Made by a program: the position numbers and the translations under genes. The notes under the pieces are model-generated. The model was not told the DNA's origin. It worked only from the letters and a program-made list of their open reading frames with translations, and did not search any database. Below are positions 8,275 to 62,999 of a stretch of DNA of 64,000 nt, piece by piece. Source of the stretch: Escherichia coli (lineage in GTDB: Bacteria; Pseudomonadota; Gammaproteobacteria; Enterobacterales; Enterobacteriaceae); NCBI RefSeq assembly GCF_009931435.1, contig NZ_CP043414.1. One strand, written 5' to 3'. Within the stretch, counting starts at the first letter, position 1. Every line of letters starts with the position of its first letter.

Positions 8275-10428
8275 ATGCTAAGTCCTTTGCTCAAACGCTA
8301 TACCTGGAACAGCGCCTGGCTGTATTACGCGCGTATTTTTATTGCGCTTTGTGGAACCACAGCGTTTCCGTGGTGGCTGGGTGATGTAAAACTGACGATT
8401 CCGCTGACGCTGGGGATGGTGGCAGCGGCGCTGACCGATCTCGATGACCGGCTGGCGGGACGTTTGCGTAACCTCATCATTACGCTGTTCTGCTTTTTTA
8501 TCGCCTCGGCCTCAGTAGAATTGCTGTTTCCCTGGCCCTGGCTATTTGCAATTGGTTTAACGCTCTCTACCAGCGGCTTCATTTTGCTCGGCGGTCTGGG
8601 TCAACGCTATGCAACAATTGCCTTCGGTGCGTTACTGATCGCCATTTACACTATGTTGGGGACGTCACTGTATGAGCACTGGTATCAGCAGCCGATGTAT
8701 CTGCTGGCCGGTGCCGTCTGGTACAACGTCCTGACACTTATTGGTCATCTGCTGTTCCCGGTCCGCCCGTTACAGGACAACCTGGCGCGTTGCTATGAAC
8801 AACTGGCGCGTTATCTTGAGCTCAAGTCGCGCATGTTTGATCCTGATATTGAAGATGAAAGCCAGGCACCGCTGTACGATTTGGCTCTCGCCAACGGTCA
8901 GCTGATGGCGACATTGAATCAGACGAAACTCTCGCTGCTGACCCGCTTACGTGGCGATCGTGGTCAACGGGGAACGCGTCGCACGCTGCATTATTACTTT
9001 GTCGCGCAGGATATTCACGAGCGTGCCAGTTCTTCTCATATTCAGTATCAAACATTGCGTGAACATTTTCGCCACAGCGACGTGCTGTTCCGTTTTCAGC
9101 GACTGATGTCGATGCAGGGCCAGGCGTGCCAGCAACTGTCACGTTGTATTTTGCTGCGTCAGCCTTATCAACATGATCCGCATTTTGAGCGCGCTTTTAC
9201 GCATATTGATGCTGCGCTGGAGCGGATGCGCGATAACGGCGCGCCTGCCGATTTACTCAAAACACTGGGATTTTTGCTGAACAATTTACGCGCTATTGAT
9301 GCCCAACTGGCAACAATTGAATCAGAACAGGCCCAGGCACTGCCCCATAATAATGACGAAAATGAGCTCGCTGATGACAGCCCGCACGGATTGAGTGATA
9401 TCTGGCTGCGTCTTAGCCGTCACTTCACACCGGAATCCGCCCTCTTCCGTCATGCGGTAAGAATGTCGCTGGTGTTGTGCTTCGGCTACGCCATCATTCA
9501 GATAACCGGAATGCATCACGGGTATTGGATATTGCTGACAAGTTTGTTTGTCTGCCAGCCAAACTATAACGCCACGCGCCACCGCCTGAAGTTAAGGATT
9601 ATTGGTACGCTGGTAGGTATCGCCATTGGCATTCCTGTGCTGTGGTTTGTGCCGTCACTGGAAGGGCAGCTGGTGCTGCTGGTTATTACCGGCGTGCTCT
9701 TTTTTGCCTTCCGTAACGTGCAATATGCCCATGCAACGATGTTCATCACACTTTTGGTGCTACTTTGTTTTAACTTGCTGGGTGAAGGTTTTGAAGTGGC
9801 GTTACCTCGCGTAATCGATACGCTGATTGGTTGTGCCATTGCGTGGGCGGCGGTGAGCTACATCTGGCCTGACTGGAAGTTTCGCAATCTGCCGCGCATG
9901 CTCGAACGTGCCACCGAGGCCAACTGTCGCTATCTCGATGCCATACTGGAGCAATACCATCAGGGGCGTGATAACCGTCTGGCGTATCGTATTGCCCGCC
10001 GCGATGCACACAACCGTGATGCTGAACTGGCGTCGGTGGTATCAAATATGTCCAGCGAGCCGAACGTTACCCCGCAAATTCGCGAGGCCGCGTTTCGGTT
10101 GCTGTGCCTTAACCATACGTTTACCAGCTATATCTCAGCCCTCGGTGCTCACCGGGAGCAGTTAACTAATCCTGAAATTCTGGCGTTTCTTGATGACGCA
10201 GTTTGCTATGTTGATGACGCGCTACATCATCAACCTGCTGATGAAGAACGCGTCAATCAGGCATTAGCTGACCTGAAACAGCGGATGCAGCAACTTGAAC
10301 CACGGGCAGACAGCAAAGAACCTCTGGTCGTACAACAAGTCGGGTTATTGATTGCATTACTGCCAGAGATTGGTCGTCTGCAACGCCAGATTACTCAAGT
10401 TCCGCAGGAAACTCCTGTTTCGGCGTAA
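8275..10428 (+). CDS. yccS: putative inner-membrane transporter (FUSC-like)
   Basis: 717 aa from MLSPLLKRYTWN.... An alternative ATG lies at 8266 (720 aa); neither start has a clear SD. Confidence 0.85.
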   Translation: MLSPLLKRYTWNSAWLYYARIFIALCGTTAFPWWLGDVKLTIPLTLGMVAAALTDLDDRLAGRLRNLIITLFCFFIASASVELLFPWPWLFAIGLTLSTSGFILLGGLGQRYATIAFGALLIAIYTMLGTSLYEHWYQQPMYLLAGAVWYNVLTLIGHLLFPVRPLQDNLARCYEQLARYLELKSRMFDPDIEDESQAPLYDLALANGQLMATLNQTKLSLLTRLRGDRGQRGTRRTLHYYFVAQDIHERASSSHIQYQTLREHFRHSDVLFRFQRLMSMQGQACQQLSRCILLRQPYQHDPHFERAFTHIDAALERMRDNGAPADLLKTLGFLLNNLRAIDAQLATIESEQAQALPHNNDENELADDSPHGLSDIWLRLSRHFTPESALFRHAVRMSLVLCFGYAIIQITGMHHGYWILLTSLFVCQPNYNATRHRLKLRIIGTLVGIAIGIPVLWFVPSLEGQLVLLVITGVLFFAFRNVQYAHATMFITLLVLLCFNLLGEGFEVALPRVIDTLIGCAIAWAAVSYIWPDWKFRNLPRMLERATEANCRYLDAILEQYHQGRDNRLAYRIARRDAHNRDAELASVVSNMSSEPNVTPQIREAAFRLLCLNHTFTSYISALGAHREQLTNPEILAFLDDAVCYVDDALHHQPADEERVNQALADLKQRMQQLEPRADSKEPLVVQQVGLLIALLPEIGRLQRQITQVPQETPVSA

Positions 10429-11020
10429 GAGAGTCAGCCCATTCTGCAAGCTCCTGGCGGCGTGCCACCGGGAGCGCAGCTTCATGAATGCCGATAATGG
10501 CCCCTTCAAGCATAAACAGAATCTTTTCTGTCACCAGACTGTTTTGCTGCCGCAGTCGCAACCAACACATTTTTGCCCCAAGTATACGTAACGCCCGTAC
10601 ATCCTTAATCCCCACCTCCCCGAGTATCGCTTCCAGATGAAAAGACATATTGGGCAAATCTTTCAGTCTTTCCCGGGTATTGCGCGTGCTTTTCTCTTTC
10701 AGCGCTGCATCGAGAGAATATTTCGACAGACGCACCAGCTTCAGTTGATTTCGCCATAGACTTTCATCAACCCGATAGTAATTGAGGGTAACGGATCGGC
10801 CACACTTTTTATATGTCAGCCAGACAGGCGGATGTTTTACACAGTACTGTGCACTTTGCTCACAAGCCCGAAGATACAACTCACCATCAGAAACCATCGC
10901 AAACACCGTGTCGTCAACGGTCAGGCTGTAACTACCAAACAATGATCGGTATTCAATTGTGCCCAACGTTGCCAGGTATTCTTGTGATTTATAGATCCGC
11001 TTATAGGAGAGGCTTTTCAT
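10391..11020 (-). CDS. sxy: competence regulator Sxy/TfoX
   Basis: 209-aa ORF recognised as Sxy. Its 3' end overlaps the yccS 3' end by 38 nt. Confidence 0.92.
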   Translation of the reverse strand: MKSLSYKRIYKSQEYLATLGTIEYRSLFGSYSLTVDDTVFAMVSDGELYLRACEQSAQYCVKHPPVWLTYKKCGRSVTLNYYRVDESLWRNQLKLVRLSKYSLDAALKEKSTRNTRERLKDLPNMSFHLEAILGEVGIKDVRALRILGAKMCWLRLRQQNSLVTEKILFMLEGAIIGIHEAALPVARRQELAEWADSLTPKQEFPAELE

Positions 11021-11196
11021 AAAATTCCTTTTAAAATCATAACATAAAAGAATTATTCACATTAACGGATCCGTTAACTACGAAAATAGGCAACTTATTC
11101 TTAAGGGGCAAGATTAATTTATGTTTTCCCGTCACTAACGACAAAATTTGCGAGGCTCTTTCCGAAAATAGGGTTGATCTTTGTCGTCACTGGATG

Positions 11197-11748: not shown

Positions 11749-11971
11749 GTAAATTTAGGAGTAATCCTGGAACTTTTTTTGTCGCCCAGCCAATGCTTTC
11801 AGTCGTGACTAATATTCCTTGCGAAGTCTTGTCTGAAGCGGTTTCCGCGATTTTCTTCTGTAAATTGTCGCTGACAAAAAAGATTAAACGTACCTTATAC
11901 AAGACTTTTTTTTCATATGCCTGACGGAGTTCACACTTGTAAGTTTTCAACTACGTTGTAGACTTTACATC

Positions 11972-50676: not shown

Positions 50677-51458
50677 ACTTTATCCTTGCTCTGCGGTTTG
50701 CGCGCGGTGACATGAATATAACGCCCCAGGGTAATATACGGTTCCTGACGGCAATAACGCGTTTCTAATTCAAGTAATGCTTCATAGCAGTCGCGCTGCT
50801 GGTGCTTCTCGCGCAGGTAATCATGAAACACGCGAACGCCGGTCTTACCCATAATTTGCCAACCAGCTTCTTCCAGCCACAGATAAACCTGCGCCGGGTC
50901 GCGTGGATAATCTGGCGAAAGCGTCCGTTTTTTCTTTTTCGGCATTCCCGCCTGCACGTAATCAAAATTCCCTGCAACCATGTTATGCATCAGCAAGCCG
51001 TGCGCATTGTAGAACATTAACGACAACACACCGCCTGGACGCAACACTGACCACAGGGTCTGCAATACGCTGCGGGGATCGGCCACCCACTCGAGCACCG
51101 CATGGAACAATATCAGATCAACGGGCGTTTCCAAATGCGAAGCAACATCCTGAGCGGCGCAATGTATAAATTGCATGTTGTCGCTCACACCTTTTGCTTC
51201 TGCCGCCTGTTTTGCGCGGTCGATCATCTGCGCTGAAAGATCGCATAAAATGACCTGATGCCCACGCTCGGCCATTTTGATTGCGGTCTGCCCTTCTCCA
51301 CCGCCAGCATCCAGCACACGCAGTTTTTGCGAGCCCATTTCCGCCAGCACGCGATCGAGATCCTGCCACAGAATAGCCTGTCGAAGCTGCCCTTTGGTGG
51401 TGCCGTAAATGTTACGGGAAAACTTTTCCGCAATATCATCAAAATTGCGATCCTGCAT
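50673..51458 (-). CDS. cmoM: tRNA cmo5U34 methyltransferase (SAM-dependent)
   Basis: 261 aa from [16 protein letters not shown]... with a SAM-binding motif (VLDAGGGEG); 4-nt overlap with mukF. Confidence 0.9.
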
Positions 51459-58410: not shown

Positions 58411-60675
58411 CTACCCGTTATCCACTGGCACGCCAAACCACTGATGATACCAACGAGGTAAAATTTGCTCTCTGAGGCTGCTAATCCGCCAGCCTTGCGC
58501 TGAAAAATTGACCGTTATTTGACCCTGATGTGGAGTATCAAGCCACTTATAACCCTGTTGTTGATAGCGATGTTTAACTTTGCTTGAGGGCAGTCGCCAT
58601 GCGTTATAGCGCGATGCCGATGCGAGTGCCACTTTTCCATTCACTCGCTGAATTAATGGCAACGATGATGAGGTATTACTGCCATGGTGAGGTACCTGAA
58701 GTAATGTTGCCTGCATTTGCTGCCAGTAACGGCTTAGCATCTTTTGTTCAGCGGGGGCTTCAATATCACCGGTTAGGAGAATGCTATTCGTCCCGTCATC
58801 AACCTTAACCACACAGGAATGGTTATTTCCTTTATCGTTGCTACCTTGTAAAGGCCAGTGCACGCTGAAACGCAATCCTTGCCATTGCCACGCTTCGCCA
58901 CGCACACAGGGCTGATGATGTTCCCAGCTTAAAGGGCTTCTGACCCATAACGTCGGCCAGGCTCGTAATATCGAGTCCAGCCCTCCCCGATGATCCAGAT
59001 GTTCATGACTAAGAATGACGCCTTCTGGTTCAAGATTATGCCAGCGTAGCCAGGGGATAATCAGTTGTTGCCCACTATCCCCCTCCGGCCAGGCCAGTCC
59101 GGTGTCATAGAGAATCGCTTTACCGTTTCTGGCTATCACCATTGCCAGCCCTTGCCCGACATCAAGCATGTACACCTGCCACGCGTCAGGCCGAGGTTTT
59201 TGCCACAGCGGCCAGCACATCAGCAAGCCTCCAGCCACACACATTGCCGGCAACGCTCGCCAGGCGTTTAATCGCCATACCACCAGTAAGAACCATGGGG
59301 AAAATGTTAGCCATTGCCAACGTTCAGCAATGTTGATCCACCCTTCCGGCAAACTCTTTAACCCCCAGAAAAGTAAAGCCAAAGACCGGTCGGCAAGAAA
59401 CCATAACCCTTGTTCCAGAATAAACGGCCCGCTTAAATGCACAACCATCGCGGCGAGAATCAACGGAACCGTGATAAATGTCACCAGGGGAATTGCAAAA
59501 AGATTTGCAATAAACGAGGTCAGACTAATGCCATGAAATATGACAATTTGCACGGGCATAAGCAGGAGGGTGATTCCCAGTTGCAGATGGATGAGGGAAA
59601 CAACCGCGCGCAATGCTGGCGGCAGCTGCCACTCCGGACAGGGAAACCACTGATACCAAAAAATCAGCGCCGCTACCGCAGCGGCAGAGAGCCATAAACT
59701 TTGCGAAAGAATGGCAACAGGATCCATCAGCAAAATTGCCGCCAGACAACATATCCATACATCCCAGCCACTCCATTGTCGTCCACTTAACTTAAGCATT
59801 CCCCAAATGGCAAGCGCCACCACGGTACGCAATGCAGGAGGCTGCATTCCCGTTAGCCAGGCGTAAAAAGCAGCACAGCAGATTCCACCAATTAATGGCA
59901 TTTGCCAGTGGATCCAGCACCCAGGCAGAAAAACTTGCCCACCGCGAATGAGTCCTGCAGCCAGCAACGCCGCAAAAGCGATGTGCAATCCTGATATCGC
60001 CATTAAATGCGCCGTTCCAGTATCACGCATGATATTTTTGATTTCTTTGGGGACGGATAACCGTTCCCCCATACCTAATCCAAGAATAACCGCGTTCCAC
60101 ATATAGGGTTGCAGCGTTGTTTGTAGTGACGCCAGATACTGTGCACGCAGGCTACAATTCGGTTCAATGACACTTGCCTGCAGAAAACGGCCGGTGAGCG
60201 GTTGATGCTGGGCAATGGCATAACGCTGGCTATCAAAGCCGCCATCATTAAGTTGGCCATGAACTGCACGAACTTTGAGTTTCATTGACCATACTTGTCC
60301 GGCACAAACCGCTTGCGGAAGATATTCGCCATACAGTACGAGGCCTGGCGCAGGGAATATACGTCGACCTTGTAGATGAGTAATTTGACCGTAATGAGTG
60401 GTCATGCCGTCAGTAGCAGTGATCTCAACTATTGCATCCTGCGTCGCGCCAGTTAAGGTTTCTCCTGCCCACAAAATTTGCTTTGCCGCTAATATGCCCC
60501 AAAGAAAAAACAGCAGCGTCAGCGCGATATAACGGACGGCTTTAACAGGAATAAATGCCAGTACGCAGGCGAAGACTGTCAGAAACGCAAGGGTTAATGT
60601 CCCAGGCAATTGGGGCAAAATCAACAACGGAAAAATTCCGCAAATTATGCTTACGCCGACTGTCGTTATTTTCAT
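58411..60675 (-). CDS. ycaI: ComEC/Rec2-family DNA internalisation channel homolog
   Basis: 754-aa ORF with a polytopic membrane domain plus a C-terminal metallo-beta-lactamase-like domain (HEHLDHRGG). Confidence 0.9.
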   Translation of the reverse strand: MKITTVGVSIICGIFPLLILPQLPGTLTLAFLTVFACVLAFIPVKAVRYIALTLLFFLWGILAAKQILWAGETLTGATQDAIVEITATDGMTTHYGQITHLQGRRIFPAPGLVLYGEYLPQAVCAGQVWSMKLKVRAVHGQLNDGGFDSQRYAIAQHQPLTGRFLQASVIEPNCSLRAQYLASLQTTLQPYMWNAVILGLGMGERLSVPKEIKNIMRDTGTAHLMAISGLHIAFAALLAAGLIRGGQVFLPGCWIHWQMPLIGGICCAAFYAWLTGMQPPALRTVVALAIWGMLKLSGRQWSGWDVWICCLAAILLMDPVAILSQSLWLSAAAVAALIFWYQWFPCPEWQLPPALRAVVSLIHLQLGITLLLMPVQIVIFHGISLTSFIANLFAIPLVTFITVPLILAAMVVHLSGPFILEQGLWFLADRSLALLFWGLKSLPEGWINIAERWQWLTFSPWFLLVVWRLNAWRALPAMCVAGGLLMCWPLWQKPRPDAWQVYMLDVGQGLAMVIARNGKAILYDTGLAWPEGDSGQQLIIPWLRWHNLEPEGVILSHEHLDHRGGLDSILRAWPTLWVRSPLSWEHHQPCVRGEAWQWQGLRFSVHWPLQGSNDKGNNHSCVVKVDDGTNSILLTGDIEAPAEQKMLSRYWQQMQATLLQVPHHGSNTSSSLPLIQRVNGKVALASASRYNAWRLPSSKVKHRYQQQGYKWLDTPHQGQITVNFSAQGWRISSLREQILPRWYHQWFGVPVDNG

Positions 60676-60830
60676 GCACCTCTCCCTGTTTATGGAAAGT
60701 GTGCAACTTATTTGAACGGCTGTCTGGTGGTAGTTTTATGTTCCCCGAGGTGCGTTCAGAAGAATTTAACGAGAAAGTGAAAACTGCTCAAAACTCTGCG
60801 AGGCAGCTTCCAGTTTCAGATTAGAGAAAT

Positions 60831-60857
60831 GAAAAAAGCACCCGACAGGTGCTTTTC
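60831..60857 (-). terminator. rho-independent terminator after ihfB
   Basis: Hairpin agcacc-cgaca-ggtgct, with a T6 run following on the minus strand. Confidence 0.7.
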
Positions 60858-60881
60858 TCGCGTTCAAGTTTGGGTAAAAAC

Positions 60882-61166
60882 TTAACCGTAAATATTGGCG
60901 CGATCGCGCAGTTCTTTACCTGGTTTAAAGTGAGGAACGTATTTTCCTTCCAGTTCTACTTTATCGCCAGTCTTCGGATTACGTCCGGTACGTGGTGCGC
61001 GGTAGTGCAAAGAGAAACTGCCGAAACCGCGGATTTCAATACGCTCGCCCTGCGCAAGAGTCGAGGCCATATGCTCCAGCATCTCTTTTACTGCATCTTC
61101 AACCGTCTTGGCGGGAATGTGCGATTGCTGGGTGGCAAGTCTTTCTATCAATTCTGACTTGGTCAT
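60882..61166 (-). CDS. ihfB: integration host factor beta subunit
   Basis: 94-aa ORF ([30 protein letters not shown]...). Confidence 0.97.
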
Positions 61167-61325
61167 GATTCCTCCGGTTCCTTAAAGGCAAATTAAGCGG
61201 CTGCTGTTGCTGCATTGATTAAGGGCGGCCGTAGCCGCCCTTAGTGCTTGATTACAGGACGAAACCTGCAATCTGTCAAGTAAACTCAACAAACTTCGGA
61301 ATAAAAATCCCGAAGAGTCAGAGAA

Positions 61326-62999
61326 TTACTCGCCTTTAGCTGCTTTGAAAGCTTCAGCCATTGCGTTGTTGGAGAAGTTTGCATCTTCCTGTTTGTTAAC
61401 AGTTGCGATTGCATCTTTCTCGTCAGCTTCGTCTTTCGCACGAACAGACAGGCTGATTGCGCGGTTTTTACGATCAACGCCGGTGAATTTAGCTTCAACT
61501 TCGTCGCCAACGCTCAGAACCAGGGTAGCGTCTTCAACGCGGTCACGGGATGCTTCAGAAGCACGCAGGTAACCTTCAACGCCGTCAGCCAGTTCTACGG
61601 TTGCGCCTTTAGCGTCAACTGCAGTTACTTTACCGGTTACGATAGCGCCTTTCTTGTTCAGAGCAACCCAGTTGTTGAACGGATCTTCTGCGAGCTGTTT
61701 AACGCCCAGGGAGATACGTTCACGTTCTGCGTCAACCTGCAGAACAACTGCAGCGATTTCGTCGCCTTTTTTGTATTCACGAACTGCTTCTTCGCCTGCA
61801 ACGTTCCAGGAGATGTCAGACAGGTGAACCAGGCCGTCGATGCCGCCGTCCAGGCCGATGAAGATACCGAAGTCAGTGATAGACTTGATTTTACCTTCAA
61901 CACGGTCACCCTTGTTGTGGGTTTCCGCGAACTGCTGCCACGGGTTAGCTTTGCACTGTTTCAGACCCAGGGAGATACGACGACGTTCTTCGTCGATATC
62001 CAGAACCATAACTTCCACTACATCGCCAACGTTAACAACTTTGGACGGGTGGATGTTTTTGTTGGTCCAATCCATTTCGGAAACGTGTACCAGGCCTTCA
62101 ACGCCTTCTTCGATTTCAACGAAGCAGCCGTAGTCGGTCAGGTTGGTCACGCGACCAGTCAGTTTGGTACCTTCCGGATAACGTTTAGCGATAGCTACCC
62201 ACGGATCTTCGCCCAGCTGTTTCAGGCCCAGGGATACACGGGTACGTTCGCGGTCGAACTTCAGCACTTTAACAGTGATTTCGTCGCCCACGTTGACGAT
62301 TTCGCTTGGATGCTTAACGCGTTTCCAGGCCATATCAGTGATGTGCAGCAGGCCGTCAACGCCGCCCAGATCAACGAATGCACCGTAGTCAGTGAGGTTC
62401 TTAACGATACCTTTAACTTCCATGCCTTCCTGCAGGTTTTCCAGCAGCTGATCGCGCTCTGCGCTGTTTTCGGATTCGATAACGGCACGACGAGAAACAA
62501 CAACGTTGTTGCGCTTCTGATCCAGCTTGATTACTTTGAATTCAAGCTCTTTGCCTTCCAGGTGCAGAGTGTCACGCACCGGACGAACGTCTACCAGAGA
62601 ACCTGGCAGGAACGCACGAATACCGTTCAGCTCAACAGTGAAGCCGCCCTTAACTTTGCCGTTGATAACACCGGTAACAGTTTCAGCATCTTCGTAAGCT
62701 TTTTCCAGCGTGATCCAGGCTTCGTGACGTTTAGCTTTCTCACGGGACAGCAGAGTTTCACCGAAGCCGTCTTCTACTGCGTCCAGAGCAACGTCAACTT
62801 CGTCACCTACCTGGATTTCCAGCTCGCCCTGGGCGTTTTTGAACTGCTCAGCCGGGATGGCGGACTCAGATTTCAGACCAGCGTCAACCAGTACTACGTC
62901 TTTGTCGATAGCAACAACAACGCCACGAACGATAGAACCCGGGCGGGTTTCGATTTCTTTTAAGGACTCTTCAAAGAGTTGAGCAAAAGATTCAGTCAT
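61326..62999 (-). CDS. rpsA: 30S ribosomal protein S1
   Basis: 557-aa ORF with six S1 repeats. Confidence 0.98.

Follow-up and report, generated by a model that had tools for sequence, protein, structure and literature searches.

The DNA analysed here is a 64-kb stretch (64,000 nucleotides) of an Escherichia coli genome, called the window, and all positions are numbered along it. The genes rpsA (61326-62999), ihfB (60882-61166), ycaI and msbA are all located on the minus strand. The ycaI ORF (58411-60675) encodes a 754-aa homologue of the ComEC/Rec2-family inner-membrane DNA channel, which is annotated as "ComEC family protein" by PGAP/RefSeq and in which Pfam recognised the domains Competence (E = 2e-53) and Lactamase_B (E = 4e-24). 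The gene sxy (tfoX) for the co-activator required at CRP-S sites is present on the same strand at 10391-11020, as identified by its ORF and the Pfam domains TfoX_N and TfoX_C. A preliminary description of this region had put ycaI and sxy about 50 kb apart, and the measured distance was 47-50 kb; this separation is without evident meaning.

The terminator scan detected the intrinsic terminator of ihfB at 60831-60859 on the minus strand, the most conserved island of the ihfB-ycaI spacer, and effective termination by this terminator has been reported in Salmonella (PMC8942017). The terminator separates ihfB transcription from the ycaI promoter. It ends 16 nt before the element at 60794-60815 to which the preliminary description had drawn attention, and the element is therefore located in the ycaI promoter region. 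At the ycaI end of the spacer, the Shine-Dalgarno sequence GGGAGAGG (60679-60686, minus strand) was conserved, reading AGGAGG or GGGAGG in every aligned genus. No Rfam family was found at significance in the ihfB-ycaI spacer.

The element, assigned to the minus strand together with ycaI, reads CTCTGCGAGGCAGCTTCCAGTT on the plus strand of the window at 60794-60815 (ctc-TGCGA-ggcagc-TTCCA-gtt; ctcTGCGAggcagcTTCCAgtt as the plus-strand 22-bp CRP register). It consists of TGCGA at 60797-60801, the spacer ggcagc at 60802-60807 and TTCCA at 60808-60812, with the TGCGA half directed toward ycaI and the TTCCA half away from it. The core is located 122-137 nt upstream of the ATG at 60675, and its centre at 60804.5 is 129.5 bp from the ATG, so that both the sequence and the location upstream of ycaI given previously were correct.

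Match to the E. coli CRP-S motif

The part of Sondberg et al. (2019; PMC6728893) that cites Sinha (2009) gives the E. coli CRP-S motif as T4G5C6G7A8-N6-T15T16C17C18A19, which is not palindromic and in which orientation is immaterial. The ycaI site agreed with this motif at 10 of 10 core positions, with both unlike halves exact and a 6-bp spacer between them. The Sxy-dependent CRP-S reading proposed in the preliminary description was hence supported, and had indeed been understated, but its account of a weak site with one poor half did not hold. The second half had appeared poor because the palindromic Haemophilus influenzae sequence TGCGA-N6-TCGCA was used as the yardstick; the TTCCA half agrees with TCGCA at 3 of 5 positions. 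Searching the 64-kb window for TGCGA-N6-TCGCA with up to one mismatch detected neither the ycaI site nor the validated site of the sxy promoter. The second half of CRP-S sites is known to be species-specific (PMC3113591, Bais et al. 2011).

The search for TGCGA-N6-TTCCA with one mismatch also gave TGCGAGGCTCTTTCCG at 11149-11164, the core of the sxy promoter's CRP-S site (attTGCGAggctctTTCCGaaa, 11146-11167, minus strand), which was used as the internal positive control. In this site, the TGCGA half is proximal to the gene and a TTCCG half is distal, in agreement with the published description (PMC6728893). The two sites share the orientation, the octamer TGCGAGGC, a similar distance from the center of the site to the ATG (129.5 bp in ycaI and 136.5 bp in sxy) and a low score as a canonical CRP site. 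They differ in that the sxy-promoter site has TTCCG, a ttt flank and no second site 53 bp downstream, and in that reporter mutagenesis has been used to test it (Jaskolska & Gerdes 2015; Sondberg et al. 2019), whereas the ycaI site is known from sequence. The mutagenesis of the sxy promoter demonstrated that both unlike halves are needed for Sxy dependence: replacement of the weak half by a second TGCGA gave Sxy independence, and two weak halves killed the promoter (PMC6728893).

In K-12, the genes ppdD, ybaV, yifB, yhgH and sxy have TGCGA-containing sites at 127-145 bp from the start codon. The sites of ppdD, ybaV (comEA), yifB (comM), yhgH (comF) and ppdA (Cameron & Redfield 2006; Sinha et al. 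2009) resemble that of ycaI in having the asymmetric motif at 111-145 bp from the start codon, and all of them precede homologues of genes for DNA uptake or processing. Within this K-12 set, the exact TGCGA-N6-TTCCA core was found only in ycaI and yifB, and ycaI lacked the T-rich flank; the ctc preceding TGCGA, instead of the ttt of other CRP-S sites, counts against the ycaI site. The CRP-S (CRE) sites of H. influenzae, including that of rec2, are comparable as they precede the orthologous gene (rec2 = comEC = ycaI), contain TGCGA with C6 and need CRP, cAMP and Sxy. They differ in being palindromic (TGCGA-N6-TCGCA) and single, while the second half in E. coli is TTCCA.

Motif scores and chance expectation

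An unseeded Gibbs sampler was used to derive a CRP-S matrix from the sequences upstream of ten K-12 Sxy-regulon operons, leaving out ycaI. The sampler converged on TTTGCGAGGC..TTC; the site choices were uncertain for hofM, yhgH, yhiR and ssb, which carry weight only as contributions to the matrix. The ycaI site scored 17.0 bits with this matrix, exceeding eight of the ten leave-one-out training scores, and ranked second when both strands of the window, 127,958 positions in total, were scored. The first rank was occupied by the sxy-promoter site, itself a member of the training set. A canonical CRP-N matrix, which was built from classical CRP sites and whose one member located in the window (ompA) matched exactly, gave only 3.0 bits for the ycaI site and 1.3 bits for the sxy-promoter site, compared to 15.7 bits for lac. 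The scoring with both matrices that had been suggested in the preliminary description consequently placed the site above background, as CRP-S and not as CRP-N. Scoring high as CRP-S and low as CRP-N is the signature of Sxy dependence, and the ycaI site behaved as a site that depends on Sxy should. The classical ompA CRP site, ATGCCTGACGGAGTTCACACTT at 11917-11938, showed the top canonical CRP score in the window.

These scores also bear on whether the element is an ordinary CRP-N site for catabolite control that acts without Sxy. TGCGA is only one base different from TGTGA, and CRP-S sites are bound weakly by CRP in vitro without Sxy, as shown for ppdD and yrfD only. Nevertheless, 297 positions in the window scored as high as the ycaI site with the CRP-N matrix, and the core agreed with the canonical TGTGA-N6-TCACA at 7 of 10 positions. 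Moreover, the C at position 6 cuts CRP binding approximately 80-fold, and CRP alone has been found unable to activate CRP-S promoters. A CRP-N site is highly improbable on these grounds.

The exact core TGCGA-N6-TTCCA occurred once in the 64-kb window against an expectation of 0.20, and 17 of 100 window shuffles contained at least one exact match, so that the single match by itself was not significant window-wide. On the argument that a 10-base pattern is bound to turn up somewhere in 64 kb, a match without function had to be considered. Other good CRP-S-like matches were indeed located in coding regions, such as TTTTTGCGAGCCCATTTCCGCC at 51324-51345 (14-18 bits by the CRP-S matrices), which lies inside the cmoM reading frame, some 250 bp upstream of elyC, a divergent gene, and is probably a chance match. 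When scaled to the 206-bp ihfB-ycaI spacer, however, the expectation for the exact core was approximately 6e-4, and the matrix score of the ycaI site was reached by one of 5000 spacer shuffles. A chance match was already disfavoured by these values.

Conservation of the site

The 22-mer of the ycaI promoter in K-12 was identical to that in the window. A 34-base megablast search against 5,426 E. coli genomes was uninformative, as the query included variable flanks, and was replaced by an alignment of seven divergent E. coli genomes and Escherichia albertii. In this alignment, 47 of 208 columns of the ihfB-ycaI intergenic region were variable (23%). The 22-mer had no variable position among the seven E. 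coli, and a single one, in the spacer between the halves, on adding E. albertii. The window itself belongs to a divergent E. coli lineage: 100% identity was found with one genome, that of strain 2020CK-00188, and the other 5,424 matching genomes showed approximately 95-97% identity over 801 bp (60400-61200) and 80-95% over the spacer (60676-60881). The ihfB-ycaI spacer is unusually variable within Escherichia, and that of this strain showed only 90-93% identity to nearly all of the 5,425 other E. coli genomes.

Scanning genomes with IhfB gave 80 loci, and synteny of ihfB and ycaI was observed in 28 Enterobacterales. The sequence TGCGA-N6-TTC[CA][AG] was centred 127-131 bp from the ycaI ATG in eight other loci, those of E. 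albertii, Enterobacteriaceae RIT691, Enterobacter Ag1, Enterobacter Bisph1, Pseudocitrobacter, a soil MAG, Kluyvera and Superficieibacter, with differing spacers and with shuffle P values of 0.006 or lower in six of the eight. An invariant 22-mer where 23% of the spacer columns vary, and an equal distance to the ATG in these eight loci of other genera in spite of different spacers, argue strongly against a functionless match, which we regard as most improbable.

Citrobacter werkmanii had TGGGA in place of TGCGA at the corresponding position, and many of the more distant Enterobacterales (Pantoea, Rahnella, Proteus, Yersinia aldovae) had no convincing site upstream of ycaI; both observations count against the reading as a CRP-S site. 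In Hafnia paralvei, the ihfB-ycaI spacer contained a perfect palindromic Haemophilus-type sequence, TGCGAAGCGTTTCGCA, at -143. In Enterobacter sp. Ag1, the CRP-S site was inverted in place at -131.

The conserved islands in the cross-genus alignment were the ihfB terminator, the CRP-S site, a second CRP-S-like element, a weak sigma-70 promoter and the ribosome-binding site, and the length variation between genera was all upstream of the CRP-S site. As the site follows the ihfB terminator so closely, the conserved block might serve another regulator, or belong to the 3' end or terminator region of ihfB. The block is, however, located beyond the T-tract of the terminator and so outside the ihfB transcript, and the Rfam search gave no significant family. 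Half-sites conserved around a variable spacer are the mark of a DNA-binding protein that acts as a dimer, the bases kept are precisely the bases of the CRP-S motif, and the inversion in Enterobacter Ag1 is of a kind tolerated at CRP-S sites. We consider a function of this other kind very unlikely.

Candidate core promoters and a second CRP-S-like element

Two candidate core promoters were read on the minus strand. The proximal sigma-70 candidate (60698-60726) consists of CAGACA (60726-60721), a 17-nt spacer and CACACT (60703-60698), with a predicted start at about 60691. The pattern xxGACA-17-CAxACT was kept in all aligned Enterobacteriaceae genera and was invariant in Escherichia. The distal alternative (60763-60791), TTGAGC (60791-60786), a 17-nt spacer and TAAATT (60768-60763), directly follows the CRP-S site. 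The consensus promoter scan of 60600-60950 found no promoter; both candidates were below the threshold, as expected for activator-dependent promoters.

The second, degenerate CRP-S-like element was found at 60741-60762 on the minus strand (cttCTGAAcgcaccTCGGGgaa; core 60744-60759, centre 60751.5), 53 bp closer to ycaI than the first site. It scored 10.2 bits with a leave-one-out matrix of six primary sites, being the best secondary match in the ycaI promoter, and only 4.5-6.6 bits with the broader CRP-S matrix. Its half-sites were invariant in Escherichia, while its spacer varied at four positions, and better copies were present at the unchanged position in Pseudocitrobacter, Kluyvera and RIT691.

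Pseudescherichia vulneris and Escherichia sp. ESNIH1 (L010:3286-3464 and L008:3286-3463) had the proximal site only, TACGAggcagcTTCAG, with a score of 15-16 bits. This single site, TACGAggc[ag]gcTTCAG, is located 74 bp from the ATG, and the spacer in P. vulneris (ggcagc) is the same as that of the distal site in Escherichia. From this sequence, it looks as if two directly repeated sites had been fused by a deletion between them.

If transcription starts near 60691, as the proximal promoter suggests, the distal CRP-S site would be centred at about -113.5 and the second element at about -60.5, a class I position. The former is farther upstream than the usual class I range of -62 to about -100, in which CRP is positioned near -62, -73, -83, -93 and -100. 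At 39 or 49 nt past the 22-mer, where a -10 element would have put the site at -61.5 or -71.5, nothing plausible or conserved was found.

The distal site could also be a real CRP-S site acting from the adjacent promoter TTGAGC-17-TAAATT, in which case the second element would be merely transcribed leader. A TTG followed after 17 nt by TAAATT is present at an equal distance after the sxy-promoter site (TTGTCG-17-TAAATT), and PMC3113591 describes a TTG that closely follows CRP-S sites in E. coli. The centre of the CRP site would, however, be at about -48.5, which fits neither class I nor class II, and the -10 element of the distal promoter was poorly kept across genera, in contrast to xxGACA-17-CAxACT. 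In addition, of the two sites and two promoters, Pseudescherichia retains only the proximal one in each case, and the secondary match at +53 recurs in other CRP-S promoters. We judge transcription from the distal promoter to be unlikely, and tentatively favor the proximal promoter.

The recurrence was analysed in seven E. coli CRP-S promoters, in which +53 bp toward the gene was the best offset for a secondary match. The scores were 10.2 bits in ycaI, 10.0 in yifB, 6.7 in ppdA (at +52), 2.9 in ybaV and 0.8 in ppdD, and no secondary match was present at +53 in the sxy and yhgH promoters (K-12 loci L091 for yifB, L087 for ppdA, L086 for ybaV and L084 for ppdD). With ycaI excluded, the rank-based Fisher test for the remaining six promoters gave p = 2.4e-4. 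By eye, a weak sigma-70-like pair was located 14 nt after the proximal 22-mer in ycaI, yifB, ppdA, ybaV and ppdD. In ppdA (K-12, L087:4179-4200), 6 nt separate the end of the predicted -10 element, CATACT, from the ATG of the annotation; either the mRNA is leaderless or the start codon is misplaced.

Discussion

We interpret the element as the main CRP-S site of the promoter of ycaI, the comEC/rec2 homologue, namely a low-affinity, asymmetric and Sxy-dependent cAMP-CRP site, with a probability of roughly 87%. The computed basis for this reading comprises the exact motif, a CRP-S score that is high and a CRP-N score that is low, an orientation and a distance to the ATG like those of the sxy-promoter site, and the strong conservation within and between genera. 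The binding of CRP and Sxy and the Sxy-dependent induction of ycaI are putative, drawn from the literature on CRP-S promoters.

By analogy with these promoters, the C at position 6 of TGCGA would hinder the DNA kink that CRP needs, and the TTCCA half would be intrinsically weak, so that CRP alone should give no activation. Sxy (TfoX) would contact CRP, and probably also the DNA of the weak half, and thereby stabilise the complex. Residues Q194/L196 of CRP are known to contact Sxy, and activating region 1 (AR1) is needed while AR2 is not, which points to RNA polymerase recruitment of the class I type. CRP at the ycaI promoter would accordingly recruit RNA polymerase via AR1 in a class-I-like manner, and ycaI would be switched on along with other DNA-uptake genes. 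The gene would be silent in ordinary culture because Sxy is scarce.

The ycaI site is a member of a known and curated class, and has very probably been published already. A study in 2006 included rec2 orthologues among 33 Enterobacteriaceae promoters, from which 38 CRP-S sites were obtained, expression of sxy induces all E. coli competence-gene homologues (PMC3330819), and RegulonDB v12 curates the CRP-Sxy complex with the asymmetric site. The full-text literature search found no description of the ycaI promoter. The site ties ycaI, the inner-membrane DNA channel homologue, to the cryptic competence regulon of E. coli; as this link was established in 2006-2009 and is curated in RegulonDB, the finding confirms known biology. 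The practical lesson is that CRP-S sites in E. coli should be searched for with the asymmetric E. coli motif and not with the Haemophilus palindrome.

The only part that might be new is the tandem architecture. For ycaI, we infer a weak sigma-70 promoter, which is conserved, with a weak proximal site at about -60.5 and a strong one at about -113.5. Class III CRP promoters of tandem type are known, for example acs P2 with CRP at -69.5 and -122.5, and the putative ycaI arrangement is similar in that a weak sigma-70 promoter is preceded by two CRP-type sites with 53 bp, or five helical turns, between them. It differs in having CRP-S-type elements at both places, with the stronger one distal. Tentatively, and with less than even odds, such an arrangement may be typical of E. 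coli CRP-S promoters including that of ycaI. A strong TGCGA-type site would be located about 113 bp upstream of the start and a degenerate site 52-53 bp closer, at a class I position of about -61 before a weak sigma-70 promoter. Sxy would then stabilise two CRP dimers cooperatively, and the single hybrid site of Pseudescherichia would have arisen by deletion between the repeats. The recurrent second site 53 bp downstream is of possible relevance to how Sxy acts. Within the literature searched, two CRP-S sites in one promoter were mentioned for comA-E and comE1 only.

Insertion sequences were observed in the ihfB-ycaI spacer of two E. coli strains. Strain 98205 carries IS200C in this spacer. 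In strain TUM12357, IS1A (L100:967-1800) is inserted at a point corresponding to about position 60733 of the window, with both CRP-S elements on one side and the proximal core promoter on the other, and should therefore uncouple ycaI from Sxy control.
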